Assembly (NCBI GenBank): GCA_963714275.1
Contig: CAVQNT010000002.1
Span: 480,001-544,000, forward strand
Direction of reading: 5' to 3'
Length of the DNA stretch: 64,000 bases
DNA from: Candidatus Bathyarchaeota archaeon
GTDB lineage: Archaea > Thermoproteota > Bathyarchaeia > Bathyarchaeales > DTEX01
How positions within the stretch are numbered: position 1 is the first letter of the stretch; every line of letters begins with the position of its first letter. Positions 12,213 through 52,130 of the stretch are shown here, one piece after another. The notes under the pieces are model-generated. The model made no database searches. It had not been told where the DNA came from and saw nothing but the letters and a program-made list of their open reading frames with translations. A program made the position numbers and the translations under genes.

Positions 12213-13169
12213 TCACTTGGTCAGGTATCTCCATGAGAGTGCTATCCCAATGAATGAGACCACAACTGCGAAGATGCTCAGAAAGGTTAAGTCAAACATC
12301 AATAATGAAACATCCAATGGAAGAATTATGAGTTGCCTAAGGGCATCTGTCAAGTAGCTTATTGGGTTTGCATGTGCTATTACCTGAATCCAATCCGGCA
12401 TCATGGATATTGGGAAGAAGGTGTTGCTTGCAAACATCAGTGGCAGGTTAATTAGGTTCACGATTGCCATTTGTGTTTCCTGTCTGGTTGACCTCAAAGC
12501 AAGCGCTAAGAACACTGAAGATAGTCCAACGCAAAGTAGGAATATTGCAGCATATACGCCTAGTATGTTAAGCGGATTGAAGGTTGAGCTGACTTGCAAA
12601 CCGAATATTACTGCGAGTATGAGGATTATTGTAGCTTGGAACATTGCCCTTAAAGCTGCGTTGAGAACCTTTGAGAATATTATTGCTCCTCTAGATACGG
12701 GGGTGCTAAGAACCTTATTCAGAAATCCTAAACGTCTATCCCAGACAATAGACATACCACTGAACATCGTTGTAAACATCACAATAAAAGATATCATGCC
12801 GACGGACATGTAGCTGAAGTAATCCTTGACGCCGAAGATGTTTTGCATCGCATTTGGGCCAATGTTAGCGAGTATCCCTTGGAACATTGCTGAAAGCTGA
12901 CTGCCAGGAATAGTTATGTACCCAACTACTGCAGGTGTGGCATAACTACCGGGTAAAGTAAGGTTGGGTATGTTTATGTTGCCAAAGTTGCCACTTGAGA
13001 ACATATTACCTATGTTCATCGCTTTTCCGAATAGTCCCATCCATAGTACTGGCTGAAGTATTGCCATTAAAAGAATTATGGGTTCTTTTAACCATTTTTT
13101 TAGCTCTCGTTTAGTTAAAGCCCAGATGCCATGAAATTTGCTTGGATGATACTCATTTATCTTGCTCAT
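12213..13169 (-). CDS. ABC-2 type permease (DrrB-like)
   Basis: WDRRLGFL, NLPLMFASNTFFP and NPISY motifs; multiple TM segments. Confidence 0.88.
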   Translation of the reverse strand: MSKINEYHPSKFHGIWALTKRELKKWLKEPIILLMAILQPVLWMGLFGKAMNIGNMFSSGNFGNINIPNLTLPGSYATPAVVGYITIPGSQLSAMFQGILANIGPNAMQNIFGVKDYFSYMSVGMISFIVMFTTMFSGMSIVWDRRLGFLNKVLSTPVSRGAIIFSKVLNAALRAMFQATIILILAVIFGLQVSSTFNPLNILGVYAAIFLLCVGLSSVFLALALRSTRQETQMAIVNLINLPLMFASNTFFPISMMPDWIQVIAHANPISYLTDALRQLIILPLDVSLLMFDLTFLSIFAVVVSFIGIALSWRYLTK

Positions 13170-46132: not shown

Positions 46133-47133
46133 ATGGTGCGGGTTTTACTCCTGACCGGGAAGGAGATTGAACCCCTATTTTCTATGCCTGAAGTTATGGA
46201 GGCTGTTGAGTCAGCTTTCAAGGAGAAGGGGTTAGGTTTCGTTCAGATGCCTCCGAAGATTTATCTTTCATACACGAATTACAATGGCGACTTGCGGGCT
46301 ATGCCTTCCTATCTTGAAAGACTCGGCATGTCTGCTGTGAAGGTTGTTAACGCGCATCCTGACAACCAAGCTAAATTCGGCTTGCCCACGGTTATGGCAA
46401 CCATTATTTTAGTTGATCCTAGAAACGGGGCTCCTCTCGCCATCATGAACGGTACACACATCACAGCAATGCGGACAGGCGCAGGCTGGAGGTTTAGCAG
46501 CCACATATCTGGCGCGTCGAGACTCGAAGGTTGTTGGGCTTGTCGGTGCTGGAACTCAAGCTCGGACGCAGCTGGAAGCTTTGCTGGTTGTTTATGAGAA
46601 GCTTGATTTGGTTAAGGTTTGGAGCCGTACAAGGGAGTCTCGGGAAAAGTTTGTATCTGAGATGAAGGCTGCATACGAGGATTTGGCTGATGTTGTTTCT
46701 GTAGATAGAACTGAGGACGCCGCGCGGGATGTGGACGTTCTTGTTACAACTACGCCTTCAAGGACACCTATTGTCATGAACAAGTGGGTTACAGAAGGCA
46801 CACACATTACATGCATAGGCGCTGACGCTCCGGGAAAGGAGGAACTTGAACCAGCCATTTTGAAACATGCAAAAATCGTCGTGGACGATTGGGAGCAGGC
46901 TTCGCATTCGGGAGAAATCAACGTTCCCTTAACCCAAGGCGTTATCTCAAGAAACGACGTTTGGGGCGACATTTGCGAGATACGCTGCTGGACTAAAACC
47001 TGGAAGGACGTCTGAAAGCGAGGTCACGGTGTTCACGTCGACGGGTTTAGCGGTCCAAGACGCTGTTACTGCGAAACTTGCGTATGACAGGGCGGTCTCA
47101 AAGAGAAAGGGACGTTGGGTTGAGCTGTTTTAG
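46133..47133 (+). CDS. Archaeal alanine dehydrogenase (ornithine cyclodeaminase/mu-crystallin family), frameshifted
   Basis: GDLRAMP, KVVNAHP, TAMRTGA, IGADAPGKEE, FTSTGLAVQD. Confidence 0.85.
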
Positions 47134-47466
47134 TCATTGCATTTTCGGATTAACGTTTTTCTTTCCAGGCACTGACGAAATTTCTGAAAAATATTATACG
47201 TTCATTGAACATAGTTGTTTCTGAACGATGACATGATCGAAGTACTTGACTCAGTTAAGAATGATTGCATGACGAGTATCCGAGTCCATATAGAGATAAG
47301 CAGTCGCATGAAGATTCTTAATGCAGTAGGAAAATCTTTTATGGCTCAATTCTCGGAAGATGTGGGGAATTTTAGTAATTTTTTTTTGATTACTGACTTC
47401 AACATTTATGTTTAATAAGCAAGAAGCAGCCTATTGAATTTTGGCTATTCATGCATGAGGGATTGC

Positions 47467-49174
47467 ATGTCGGTTCTCAAATACTCAGAAATGCGGAACT
47501 GGGACATCATTGTCGACTCCGAAGCAATTCCATCCGAAAAGTATGCAGCGCAAGAATTCCAGCATTTTTTTGAACAAGCCACAGACATTCTTCTTCCTGT
47601 GCATAATTCTAACGAAAAAGCTTCTAACCATGTCTACATTGGTAAGAGCGCTGCGTTGAGTGAAAGCGGCATCACGGTTGACGCTTCTAAGTTAGGCGAA
47701 GAAGGTTTACACATAATCATAAAAGATGATGTTTTAGTCATTGTTGGGGGAAGACCCAGAGGCACGCTTTACGGGGTATACCAGTTCATCGAAGACGAGC
47801 TGGAGTTCGGTTTCTGACCCATGACCACACGCATGTTCCCGATTCTTCTAAGGCAAAGTTACATTGCAGAGAATACGTCTACAAGCCTCCGTTCAGTTTC
47901 CGTTGGAGCTATTACGCGGAAAACTCGAAACATCCCGAATTCGCAGTGAGACTACGTGTAAACACGGTCACAACTGACGAGAAGCTGGGAGGTAAAACAG
48001 GTCAGAACCTCATCAGCCACTCGTTTCACAAGCTGGTCCCATTCAGCAAGTACGGAAAGGACCATCCGGAGTATTACGCCTTGGTTGACGGCAAACGGGA
48101 CACGAACACGGCTTGGAGCGGTCCACAGCTGTGCGTGACGAACCCCGAGGTAGTCAAGGTTGTAGCTGAAGCTGCAATCCGTTTTTTGGATGAACACCAA
48201 TTTAGTAACATTAGCGTCAGTCAGGCGGACACGGACAAGTACTGCTGTTGCGACAGGTGCCAAGAAATCAACATGTGCGAAGACACGCCTATGGGGTCTC
48301 AGCTGAGCTTTCGTTAACGCTGTTGCTGAGCTGGTCGAAAAGGCGCATCCGAACGTTAAAGTCGGAACGTTGTCTTACTGGTACACTCGGAAGCCGCCCA
48401 AGACCGTTCGACCGCGACGCAATGTTCAGATTCAGCTCTGCAGCATTGAGTGTTGCACTTTGCATCCGATTGATGACCCAGACTGTCCGAGGAACACCGA
48501 GTTCTGTCACGACGTGAACGAGTGGGGCAAGATTTGCGACGACATTTGGATTTGGAACTACAACACCAATTTCACCGCTTACGACCTGCCCTTCCCGAAT
48601 CTGCGAAGCATCGGTCCGAACGTGCGCTATTTCCTACGCAACAAGGGGAAAGGCGTGTTCATGCAAGCAAACGGGAACGGAACCTCAGGCGAACTTTCTG
48701 ACCTACGGAACTACGTTATTTCGCGGTTGCTGTGGAATCCCGATCTTGACGACCAAAAACTAATTGAAGAGTTTGTGCAGTCTGCATTACAAGTCTGCTG
48801 CTCAGCCGATTTTGGATTACATCGAAATGTTGCATGACAACGCTGAGGAGTCAGGCGTGCATCCAAACTGTTTCCCCAAGCCTGAGGAGGTTGGGCTTCG
48901 CCCCGAAATAGCCCGCAAAGCCCTCGATTTCTTTAACAGGGCATTGGAGCTTGCACACGATGAAGCCTGTCTATGCGAGGGTGGAGAAGGCTTCCATTTG
49001 CGCCTACAGAGCCATGATTGAGGCAGGAGGCGCCTTGACTGAGGTTGAGTTAAGTCTCTCGTTGACCATTACATTGCGTTGTGCCAGCGTTACGACATGA
49101 CGTATGCTGCGGAACACAAAGAAGCTTCCCAGTTCTTCGAAAAGCTCAAGCAGCGGGTAAAGGACGCTTCGTGA
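47467..49174 (+). CDS. DUF4838-like glycoside-hydrolase-related protein, several frameshifts
   Basis: GGRPRGTLYGVY N-terminal domain, HSF...HPEYYALVDGKR...QLCVTNP and LLWNP; joins four ORFs. Confidence 0.72.
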
Positions 49175-49691: not shown

Positions 49692-51926
49692 CTAAGACGA
49701 TTTAGGTCTGTACCGGGCTGGCTGTCGACTGAACCGAGTAACGCCGTTGACGGAACCGCACTGGGGACACTTCGCCTGTTCGCCGAGGAACGTTTTCTGG
49801 CAACTGCTGCAGAACGTTAGGGTTCGGTCAAAAGCGTACAATCCAATCTTGTGGTCCTGAAAGATTCTTCGGGTCGTCGAAGAAGCTTTTCAGCGTCTAC
49901 ATCTGTCTCGTCAAGCGGAATCTTGGCTAGGTGGCTTCCGGGAGCCAAAGCCTCAAAACGGGATTCGATGCGGAGGCAATCGTCCAAAGGCAACTTGGTT
50001 TCTGAAGGAACAACCATCATGCTCGTGTAGTAAGGATGGTCTCGTCCGCCAGCCACGTGAACCTCGCCTAAACCGTACCTCTCGACGTCCAACTCCGCCA
50101 CCCTCCTCGCAGCGTCAAAGTCAGGCGTCAAACCCACGGCAAACCTCAACTTCCTGTTCCTAGAGTACGCCTTTTGCTGTTTTGTAACGTAAGTAACAAT
50201 TTCCTCAGCGAACCTCAAGGCTTCTTCGCCCTCGTAAACGTTTTTTCCAATCAAGGCGTAGAGAGCTTCGTTCAACCCGACGAAGCCAAGCATGTAAGAA
50301 GAGTTTTCAAGCCTGAGATAGGAGTCTTTAGCCTCCTTTTGCGCAAGAAAAGGTAGAAGCCCCTCCTGTGCACGCCTCGAAACCGCGCGGCTTTTGATGT
50401 CTAAGGCTCTGGAACCCATTTCTGTAAGGTCAGCTAGATACCTGAAAAACCTGTCCTTATCTTTTTCAGCCTCGTACACTGCCCTTGGAAGGTTCAACGT
50501 CGCACGGTCAACGCACGCGGTTCGTATGGTGTCGAGCTCCCAATCCTCCCTCCAATCGTCCGAAAACCGTAAGCCATCCGCAGCGTACGAAACTTTCTGC
50601 CCATTGGAAGCAAGATTGGCGAAGTAAGGAAGCCCGTTCACGGAAAGCCCGTGAGCCTCGAATAGCAACCTCTCGGCTTCTGAGTCCCCAAAGGTTTCAG
50701 GACGCATCTTCACGATGATGCTGGGACAAAAAATCGGCTTGACATTTCCCATCTCCTTCAAACAGTCCAAAACCAGTGACGCGATAAGACGGCTCTCGTC
50801 AACGAAATCCGCATAAACACCCGCAGCTTCCCCGCCTGGACCAACAGCCTCAACGTTTGCGAGGAACTTGGGCAAGACAGTTTCCAGCCCCAACGAGATT
50901 CCCGTCGGAACCGTCACATTCACGGAGCCGAGGAAAAGCCGCAGGTCCTCCTTAACCTCCTCCTTCGAAAGACCTTTGACAAACGGAGCCAAAAAAAAGT
51001 TGAAATAGTCAACCGCCTGCTCGCATGTAATCTCAGCTGAGGCAATCTGCAGCATGTCAGCAACCAACGAAAGCGCTGATCTCAAGTTCTTGGGCGGTCC
51101 CAAAGAGGCACGTGAAACACTGTTTTTAGGAGCCAAACCGTTTTTCAGGAAAACTCTGAGGTCGTGCATGAATCCTGAGGTCTTGAGAATCCACGAGCCG
51201 AGTTCGTTGAGGTTCAGCGAGCCAGAAATGTGGGCGTCCGCTATGTCCCTCGGCAGGACGTTCAGAAGAGTGTATTCCTCGACGACGCGGCTTCCTGCTG
51301 CAGCGCGGACCTTTTCGACGTCAGACTCCCTTCACGCTCATTTCCCTCATGAGCAACGTAACGTCGTACACTGGGAAGCCGAGACGGGTGAGCTTATGCC
51401 TGTACTCTTCATAACCGTGTTCAACAAGAATCGCGTTCACAAACTCCCTGATCAACGGAGCCGTCAAGTACTTCGTGCCGAGCTTAAGCAACCGCTTCTC
51501 AGCTTCCCTCGAAACCTTCTGAGCCATCTCCGCTGGAACGTCTGCTTCCCTCACGAGCGACTCAGCGATCTTGTTTCGGTCAAAGTTCTCTATTGCCAGC
51601 CGCGAGGTTCGGACAAGCAGCCTCTTCTTGAGGGCGCTGTTATCAAGTTCGTCAGCAAACTCAACAAGCGTCTTACCCATGTCCGTCAAAACGTACTTCC
51701 TTGATTCAGGATCAGGTTCAATCAGGTCCATGCCTGTAAGGGTTTTAAGGTGGTAAGCGAACCTTCCGGCGTCACGGCTTGGGCTTAGCTTAAGAATGTT
51801 CATGATCTCCGTGTAGGATAGGGGTCCCTTTTCGTAGAGCAGCCTAAGAATGTTGAGCCTTAAGGCTGAGGCGACTGCCTTGAGTACCCTTGCCCCTAAC
51901 CTTCTTCTTCGAGCCAAGCCTTCCAC
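49692..51926 (-). CDS. ArsR-like wHTH + ATP-cone + class III RNR (NrdD)-fold + Zn-ribbon fusion, catalytic residues absent; frameshifts near 51325 and 49880
   Basis: N-terminal LRLNILRLL...LSYTEI...FAYHLKTL wHTH; VRTS..ENFDRNKIAESL ATP cone; DAHISG, TLNLPR and GFVGLNE NrdD motifs; C-terminal CSSC..CPQC then SRQPARY. Confidence 0.85.
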
Positions 51927-52130
51927 AGCGACCTTTCAAACGTTTCGACTCAAACATCGTCTGTTTGGCGACTTACCAAGTTCATCGATTAAAGCCTAAA
52001 CGGTTTACTATAATAATTTCGAGTATGCCGTTAAAAGATTTTGGTAACAATTAAGGGTTCCTTTAAACTGCAAGCAATTTCTGACGAAGAACTGAAAAGA
52101 TATTTATATCCATCCAATAATTTTAGACCC

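Follow-up and report, generated by a model that had tools for sequence, protein, structure and literature searches.

The gene considered here lies on the minus strand at 49692-51926 of a 64,000-nucleotide stretch of DNA (hereafter the window; positions 480,001 to 544,000 of contig CAVQNT010000002.1) from Candidatus Bathyarchaeota archaeon. A winged helix-turn-helix (wHTH), an ATP-cone, a class III ribonucleotide reductase (RNR; NrdD) barrel and a Zn ribbon are encoded there across three reading frames. The open reading frame (ORF) pieces run from 51926 to 51324 (201 aa), from 51331 to 49820 (504 aa) and from 49841 to 49695 (49 aa), and with two assembly indels discounted they give a protein of ~744 aa, matched by an intact homologue, P0001, of 744 aa that is 96% identical over the middle piece. 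This domain order had been proposed from the letters of the window by a first reading (the original prediction), and is borne out by Pfam and by a structure match. Residues 13-89 (51660-51890) are an ArsR/SmtB-type wHTH, recognised on the first piece by Pfam DUF7347 (38.5 bits against a cut-off of 27.6) and by HTH_5/ArsR (27.1 bits against 22); the NCBIfam model HTH_metalloreg scored 32.9, below its cut-off of 55. DUF7347 is also precomputed on most of the 120 homologues listed. The ATP-cone, at residues 105-175 (51402-51614), scores 31.1 bits against a Pfam cut-off of 25.8 and carries VRTSR, with an invariant R106, instead of the usual VxKRDG. The second piece (49820-51331) holds the core of an NrdD-like, catalytically dead ten-stranded barrel, with 201.4 bits on Pfam NRDD (E 3e-59), and is followed by a CxxC...CxxC Zn ribbon at 49758-49811. 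The third piece, with the Zn ribbon and tail, reaches 21 bits on NRDD, under the cut-off of 26.2, and the curated NrdD equivalog TIGR02487 gives 231.6 bits, below its cut-off of 326.35; the canonical NrdD of the same genome scores 664.7 bits on Pfam NRDD. The likeness to NrdD is beyond chance, given the E-value of 3e-59 and the superposition of the intact homologue's model on solved enzymes at Z 36.

Both frameshifts are assembly errors, and the gene is intact in nature. One extra base at 51325 makes a stop after ...MSVKGV, and one base is missing at 49879-49882. The two single-base frameshifts across which the original prediction had joined the gene were confirmed as indels by comparison with P0001 and with L056, a 90%-identical locus against which the same two indels appear inside the gene and the window is short of one base at 49882. 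In Logan contigs from four runs of four studies, aligned to the window (some pieces with 0-5 differences), the base at 51325 is left out in 4/4 runs at full depth, and an A is inserted behind 49879 in 4/4 runs, at full depth in X2-X4 and at 5.74 of 14.9 in X1. It is on the four runs, the intact homologue and L056 that we call the gene intact. The sequence as given, with its stop after residue 201 and second frame change, would fit a pseudogene truly broken in this genome; this was rejected on the four-run contigs and the L056 comparison, and we regard it as extremely improbable, as the near-identical contigs carry neither indel, the 504 codons between the indels hold no stop, and other genes of the same assembly are split too. 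The nrdG beside the genome's canonical nrdD is split into two overlapping ORFs (L001 769-1546, G000 contig C6), an ornithine cyclodeaminase (OCD)/mu-crystallin gene of the window lies in two pieces at 46133-47015, and a GH67N/DUF4838 gene in three or more at 47434-49021; therefore, the assembly seems rich in single-base indel errors.

Loss of ribonucleotide reductase chemistry

Three catalytic positions had been called substituted from the window, and the motifs on which that call was based, SWILKTSGFMHDL, VSYAADGLRFSDDW, and FSRQPARYRPKSS, are all present in the translation exactly as quoted. By alignment, the position of the first active-site Cys falls in WILKTSGFMHDL (51158-51193), just after a degenerate HxHD (NLNE here). 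The former thiyl-radical finger loop reads SYAADGLRF (50564-50590), with Leu for Cys, followed by a family-specific DWxxDWELD, and the pseudo glycyl-radical loop reads SRQPARY (49710-49730), with Ala for Gly and Arg for Tyr. The read-corrected sequence still has SRQPARY and ADGLRF, so that correction restores neither RxxGY nor the finger-loop Cys. None of the outcomes named beforehand as refuting the original prediction was seen.

The loss extends across the orthologues. We aligned 115 of the 120 listed homologues with the genome's canonical NrdD, dropping five shorter than 700 aa. The first active-site Cys is found in 0/115 (Gly in the window), the NxN flap in 0/115, and the radical Gly in 0/115, where the column holds Ala in 99, Thr in seven and Ser in three. 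The Tyr after the radical Gly is replaced by Arg in 51 and Lys in 49, the second His of HxHD is found in none and its Asp in five, and the finger-loop position is variable (C 37, L 32, S 12, F 11, H 10). The Zn ribbon is kept, with its second CxxC pair (C720, C723) in 115/115 and its first pair (C706, C709) invariant in a 35-sequence alignment and at least 97% conserved in the 115. An exhaustive search gave 430 proteins at E <= 1e-30 and 150 cluster representatives, 82 with the wHTH and 68 lacking it. Among the 82, none has the first Cys or HxHD, and a loose RxxGY-like pattern occurs in three, by chance in P0267, all three without both cysteines; among the 68, RxxGY is found in 30, the first Cys in 28 and HxHD in 33. 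In the available part of Bimai et al. (PMC11226230), the NxN flap is described as among the most conserved NrdD motifs and HxHD as recognising the triphosphate. Having lost the radical Gly and the two cysteines along with the NxN flap and the HxHD that recognises the triphosphate, the protein is, judging by its sequence, incapable of RNR chemistry, neither activatable nor nucleotide-reducing.

The surroundings in the genome are in line with the original prediction on two further points. No NrdG activase is adjacent, as the genome's 19 NrdG2-like matches are all outside the window (C2:480001-544000), and the sole such match above the cut-off adjoins the canonical nrdD on contig C6. That nrdD-nrdG pair, the only canonical one in the genome, is a separate, intact RNR on another contig.

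The gene is not decaying. Overall dN/dS is 0.05-0.14 in 13/13 pairs of intact orthologues, well below 1, and by domain it ranges over 0.006-0.11 in the wHTH, 0.009-0.135 in the cone and 0.058-0.17 in the barrel core. Because the catalytic positions are lost family-wide while dN/dS is low, this is a conserved pseudoenzyme under strong purifying selection, retained as had been proposed. The ATP-cone is the most conserved domain (50 of 90 columns at least 95% conserved), the recognition-helix region of the wHTH, DAGRFAYHLK, is invariant, and the former finger-loop region carries a family-specific motif (G451, W458, D461, W462, E463, D465) conserved at 97% or more. The purifying selection on the core, together with these new acidic and aromatic residues, could also be read as signs of a protein that is still an enzyme, using the new barrel residues for a chemistry that needs no glycyl or thiyl radical. 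We consider this very unlikely: all known substrate-binding and radical motifs are gone, conservation peaks in the cone and the wHTH rather than in the barrel, and in a Thaumarchaeota-type subgroup the barrel is far more degenerate and ends right after the Zn ribbon, with the wHTH and cone kept.

Predicted structures agree with the domain assignment. The AlphaFold model of P0001 has a mean predicted local distance difference test (pLDDT) score of 87, with low-confidence linkers at residues 98-112 and 181-184. It matches solved class III RNRs (Thermotoga maritima, P. copri, T4) at Z 34-36.5 and a root-mean-square deviation (rmsd) of 2.4-2.9 A over ~528 residues; the match to 4u3e has Z 36.5 and rmsd 2.9 A over 528 residues (Foldseek E 1e-25), and VIA-align gives Z 36 to 4u3e, 4coj and 8p2s. 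The superposition takes in the C-terminal loop, so that the model and the solved NrdDs end together, and the modelled protein keeps the NrdD fold of a ten-stranded alpha/beta barrel with finger loop. A separate model of the N-terminal 201 residues (pLDDT 77) superposes on SmtB, CzrA, HlyU and PagR with target-normalised template modelling (TM) scores of 0.75-0.77 and rmsd ~2 A, at Foldseek E-values of only ~1e-2. The best fold matches of its ATP-cone are NrdR structures (E 1e-4 to 2e-2). A sequence search of the same 201 aa against the PDB returned weak matches only (eL14 0.012, PagR 0.061, ArsR 0.85).

Other NrdD relatives surfaced in the same search. P0183, P0197, P0207, P0229, P0232 and P0241 form a second, apparently dead NrdD lineage, with no HTH, that branches among the active NrdDs; its members have two ATP-cones and a barrel cut short near position 500 of the 562-position profile, have neither Zn ribbon nor glycyl-radical domain, and mostly lack the finger-loop Cys. 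Many active relatives are 1000-1700 aa long and match in two to three separate stretches (P0166, P0171, P0182, P0202, P0212), as would be expected of inteins; none of the wHTH-bearing proteins among the 150 representatives is longer than 1000 aa.

Gene neighbourhood and promoter elements

In the window, the gene is flanked by an MTS-type methyltransferase gene, a short-chain dehydrogenase/reductase (SDR) gene and, on the opposite strand, a split transketolase gene; neighbours of this kind are typical of its lineage and include no RNR gene. Only two ATP-cones were found in the genome, and neither NrdJ nor NrdR. Across other lineages, gene order ties the dead paralogue to RNR. Relatives are encoded at 555 places in the species-representative genome collection, and the neighbours of the best 80 of these were examined. 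In 28 of the 54 loci with at least 1.5 kb of downstream flank, the gene is followed immediately, in the same orientation, by one for an active-looking NrdD that starts within 1.2 kb, and all 24 complete downstream NrdDs have RxxGY, HxHD and ENxN. Ten further genomes show the same tandem with a third NrdD type; the ATP-cone of these adjacent active NrdDs is of the dead paralogue's variant. In 23 loci a glutaredoxin-like gene stands between the dead paralogue and nrdD, and pyrB/pyrI adjoin.

The neighbour may also be a class II gene. In family f11 the gene lies directly upstream of the class II nrdJ in 5/5 loci, and the same order is found in 5/5 loci of the Thaumarchaeota-type family. Moreover, in 5/5 high-quality genomes (completeness 96-100%) this gene is the sole NRDD-family match, and each of the five has 2-3 NrdJ matches. 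The original prediction had offered as an alternative that the protein is a regulatory partner of an active NrdD, and one may picture a hetero-oligomer or scaffold whose wHTH serves for protein contacts or tethering, since NrdD acts as a dimer, the dead paralogue retains its fold, and the two genes are frequently located together. We find such a role quite unlikely. The absence of any other NrdD from the five high-quality genomes and the adjacency to nrdJ, there and in Thaumarchaeota-type genomes, argue against a subunit partner of NrdD and for a tie to either RNR class, and the invariance of the recognition-helix region is what a conserved DNA target would lead one to expect.

The promoters of the gene carry a conserved box. 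In many lineages a near-palindrome, TAcTTTAA-TTTT-TTAAAcTA, precedes the gene's start by 45-60 bp. All 31 exact copies of the 13-mer TAATTTTTTAAAC in the 80 loci stand before this gene, and an 18-mer is present in exactly one copy per genome, at this gene's promoter, in 5/5 genomes. Of 95 regions upstream of the gene, 43 contain TTTTTTAAAC, which is absent from all 567 control regions taken upstream of other genes in the same orientation. Variants of the inverted repeat (GTTTAATCTTTTAAAC, GTCTAAAATAATAGAC, GTTTAAAAAATTAGAC) lie upstream of the gene in other families. In the window, the promoter region, shared with the divergent transketolase gene, spans 51927-52040; it contains a box-like element, ATACTCGAAATTATTATAGTAAAC (52003-52026), tentatively homologous to the ATACTTTAATTTTTTAAACTA box of other lineages, and a conserved block, CAAAATCTTTTAACG (52029-52043), that ends 3 bases inside the transketolase ORF.

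Similar palindromes are found at RNR promoters. In the window's family and among its relatives, unlinked nrdD promoters have palindromes of the GTCTAAAAAATTAGAC type, which stand 6-8 nt ahead of a TTTAAAT element; the one in the window's own genome is ATCAAATTTTTTAAAC. A 16-bp position weight matrix (PWM) trained only on 11 of these unlinked nrdD-promoter palindromes scores at least 10 bits in 38 of 75 promoters of the dead paralogue against 13 of 450 control promoters, several of the 13 being the same intergenic region read from the opposite side. In addition, the 12-mer TTTAATTTTTTA is common to the grx-nrdD promoters downstream of the gene, in inverted orientation, at 1-4 copies per genome; in G204 and G205 there are four copies per genome, two of which are this gene's promoter and the grx-nrdD promoter. 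Comparison of the window's promoter with the nrdD promoter of the same genome yielded two shared 8-mers only, which is uninformative. Together, the gene order and the common promoter box strengthen the link that the sequences suggest between this protein and RNR regulation.

These neighbours also bear on a broader role. The protein might be a DNA-binding regulator or architectural protein with other or wider targets, such as pyrBI or replication, whose barrel senses another metabolite, and its RNR neighbourhood might reflect no more than the clustering of nucleotide-metabolism genes. In favour of this, pyrB is a neighbour in 11 of the 38 loci whose downstream flank reaches 5 kb or more, as it is in several further families, the new motif in the former active-site loop could be a ligand site, and the window's own lineage has its methyltransferase, SDR and transketolase neighbours with no RNR gene among them. 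On the other hand, pyrB is convergent, across distant lineages it is an RNR gene, for NrdJ or one of three NrdD types, that recurs as neighbour, always immediately downstream and in the same orientation, and the box recurs at nrdD promoters. We therefore hold a broader role to be rather unlikely.

Several further conserved elements were seen in these regions. A ~40-bp block, TTATACAGAATTTTATAC-N8-(G/C)ACTAAAAAATTAAATA, lies upstream of glutaredoxin-nrdD in L085-L134 (e.g., L117 ~12380-12480), and CTACATTTTTGTAG-type repeats precede nrdJ in L183 and L188. In the Thaumarchaeota-type loci L204-L207, a conserved ATGAAATTCATAGTAGCGGTGT is found ~90-110 nt before nrdJ, between the dead paralogue and nrdJ, and a conserved CTAGTCACAAGTCTTATTTAG before the paralogue itself. 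A different, perfect palindrome of the GTCAAGAAATCTTGAC type recurs at a distance of a few kb, in intergenic regions between divergent genes (L114, L115, L118, L126, L090), upstream of genes of clusters 6, 47 and 48, and surfaced among the PWM control matches.

Origin and distribution of the family

The wHTH-bearing family, as far as a barrel-core tree can tell, has a single origin. The tree (FastTree, 132 rows, 558 columns) was made by a quick method and has some long branches, which makes the position of any single row uncertain. One clade of 88 rows, with support of 99, takes in all 76 wHTH rows; the other 12 rows are truncated or HTH-less, and none has RxxGY. This clade is sister to the active NrdDs, and the wHTH/dead versus active state changes once on the tree. 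The possibility that the wHTH is a separate gene was rejected, as it is fused in a single ORF in the intact genes of many genomes, complete ones included, which agrees with the fusion originally proposed. At L045 (7059-12065; G185 C1), the dead paralogue sits inside an open frame of 1,668 codons, given as 1681 aa in the genome search, which might reflect an insertion, a fusion or an extended N-terminus.

The family is widespread in Bathyarchaeia, where a match at E <= 1e-20 is found in 185 of 201 sampled genomes and a full-length one at <= 1e-90 in at least 137; for 48 genomes of the class the only matches are at the level of canonical NrdD, and two of these are near-complete genomes of the window's own family. 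The best 80 of the 555 loci all carry the labels Bathyarchaeia/Bathyarchaeota, Thermoproteota or 'uncultured archaeon', except for one labelled Krumholzibacteriaceae. L128 is a locus of Ca. Bathyarchaeum tardum, a cultured or enriched carrier. Across the phylum, 103 of 251 genomes match at <= 1e-60, and whole families outside the class carry the gene (f45 21/22, f46 8/8, f51 4/4). A divergent subgroup is found in 18 of 34 genomes of f39, a family of complete genomes of 1.2-2.2 Mb, with relatives named as Thaumarchaeota/Nitrososphaerales 'ArsR family transcriptional regulator', and other members are named from Culexarchaeum and Thorarchaeota.

A candidate regulator of RNR genes

On balance, we lean towards the reading that this dead class III RNR paralogue is a dimeric, ATP-cone-controlled wHTH transcription regulator of its own promoter and of RNR promoters. 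Its binding to DNA, its dimerisation, its sensing of nucleotides and the direction in which it would regulate are what we infer from the domains, the gene order and the promoter box. The barrel, having kept the NrdD fold and shed its radical chemistry, would act as a dimer scaffold, as it does in NrdD. Two N-terminal ArsR-type wHTH domains would thereby be presented to a 16-20 bp A/T-rich inverted repeat with a consensus of about GTyTAA-N4-TTArAC, which, going by conserved sequence, would be the box 45-60 bp upstream of the gene's own start and beside the TATA-like element of nrdD promoters. The protein might then repress itself and the RNR genes by occluding the B recognition element (BRE)/TATA region. 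The ATP-cone, flexibly linked to both of its neighbours, would read ATP versus dATP and alter DNA binding as in NrdR.

A number of observations weigh against this reading. Adjacency to RNR genes is far from general: 26 of the 54 Bathyarchaeia loci with enough flank have no adjacent RNR gene, of the 20 loci surveyed together with f11, the 15 outside that family lack an RNR neighbour and often have pyrB adjacent, and of the 10 loci surveyed with the Thaumarchaeota-type family, the five from four other families have no RNR gene beside them. The counted loci are also related to one another, and the counts therefore overstate independence. The gene can be lost, as two near-complete genomes of the window's own family, G020 (100%) and G056 (96%), show no dead paralogue. 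At the aligned radical position, 2 of the 82 wHTH representatives keep an RxxGY-like string, ARRLGYLEP in P0156 (764 aa) and RRAEGYV in P0134 (739 aa), both with both cysteines gone; these strings may be relics of an active ancestor. The cone has VRTSR where the usual KRDG signature would stand, and ATP/dATP binding is therefore not assured. As for the box, the window's own promoter has a degenerate copy only (52003-52026), and the promoters of its closest relatives reach PWM scores of only 9.5-9.8 bits. Genome-wide in the window's genome, the PWM gave 53 matches at 11 bits or more against 71 after block shuffling, and so is too weak for regulon prediction. The box is A/T-rich and stands at the expected archaeal BRE/TATA position, and might therefore represent either a core promoter conserved to an unusual degree or a site at which another factor binds. 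Finally, 7 of the 24 nrdD upstream regions examined have a typical NrdR directly upstream of nrdD (L162-L167, L169; G207, G082, G032, G226, G038, G086, G094), with a CxxC...CxxC Zn ribbon and an ATP-cone ending VAYIRFASVY; these genes end ...VAYIRFASVYRRFEEPEDF..., and the families of these genomes also carry the dead paralogue. As NrdR coexists in families with the dead paralogue, neither simply substitutes for the other.

A wider version of the regulator reading is also conceivable, in which the family would be a phylum-wide archaeal master regulator of deoxynucleoside triphosphate (dNTP) supply. A whole class III RNR would have been duplicated once, lost its radical chemistry and gained a wHTH, with the ATP-cone, and possibly the dimer-interface specificity site, serving as sensor; it would control class II or III RNR and its own gene, and would stand in for NrdR in Bathyarchaeia, in ammonia-oxidising Thaumarchaeota and in relatives of both. 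We put this forward tentatively, and would judge it a little less likely to hold than to fail. The archaeal analogue of NrdR envisaged in the original prediction has thus gained in part, from the RNR gene order and the promoter box, and lost in part, from the genuine NrdR upstream of nrdD in some Bathyarchaeia.

The closest functional parallel is NrdR, described as a bacterial repressor, with a Zn ribbon and an ATP-cone that is found near RNR genes of any class and, in the part of the account available (PMC12051234), acts at 16-bp palindromic boxes. As far as that account goes, the two systems are alike in combining a DNA-binding domain with an ATP-cone, in their adjacency to RNR genes and in palindromic boxes at RNR promoters. 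They differ in that NrdR is ~150 aa long with an N-terminal Zn ribbon and paired boxes, whereas the protein described here, of ~744 aa, has an ArsR-type wHTH, an entire dead NrdD barrel, a sole Zn ribbon that is C-terminal and NrdD-derived, and single boxes of another sequence, known as conserved sequence; membership of the NrdR sequence family was not found for this protein. With the class III NrdDs of known structure (T4, T. maritima, P. copri, S. thermophilus) it shares the ATP-cone, ten-stranded barrel, Zn ribbon and C-terminal loop, but it is without the radical Gly, the two Cys, HxHD and the NxN flap, bears an extra wHTH at its N-terminus, and also occurs in genomes that have no active NrdD. 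ArsR/SmtB members bind inverted repeats as dimers. The wHTH fold and the HTH_5 match relate the protein to these repressors (SmtB, CzrA, CadC, HlyU, PagR); unlike them, it gives no evidence of a metal-sensing site, and its wHTH is appended to a 650-aa sensor or scaffold. Herpesvirus R1 homologues are dead large subunits of a class I, viral RNR that act in host-cell signalling. They offer a parallel for an RNR catalytic subunit kept in a non-enzymatic role after catalysis was lost, but are not known to carry a DNA-binding fusion or to be linked to the regulation of RNR genes.

To our knowledge, the transcriptional control of RNR genes in archaea is largely unknown. In the part of the 2009 RNRdb description available (PMC2795772), 6 of 1274 NrdR entries are archaeal. 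A wHTH-fused or dead NrdD was not described in the main texts of the literature searched on class III RNR, archaeal regulators, ATP-cones and DUF7347, nor in the available parts of PMC9531940, PMC11226230, PMC3019208 and PMC2795772; family members may be present, without comment, among the sequences from which the RNR phylogenies of PMC9531940 and PMC11226230 were built. In databases, members are named 'anaerobic ribonucleoside-triphosphate reductase', 'ArsR family transcriptional regulator', 'helix-turn-helix domain-containing protein' or 'hypothetical', and genomes with only this protein could therefore be miscredited with a class III RNR and an anaerobic dNTP route. The family is a concrete candidate for an archaeal regulator of RNR genes, and in Thaumarchaeota-type complete genomes its gene stands directly before that of the B12-dependent RNR. 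If the reading is true, a large enzyme would have been recycled whole into the sensor of a transcription factor.

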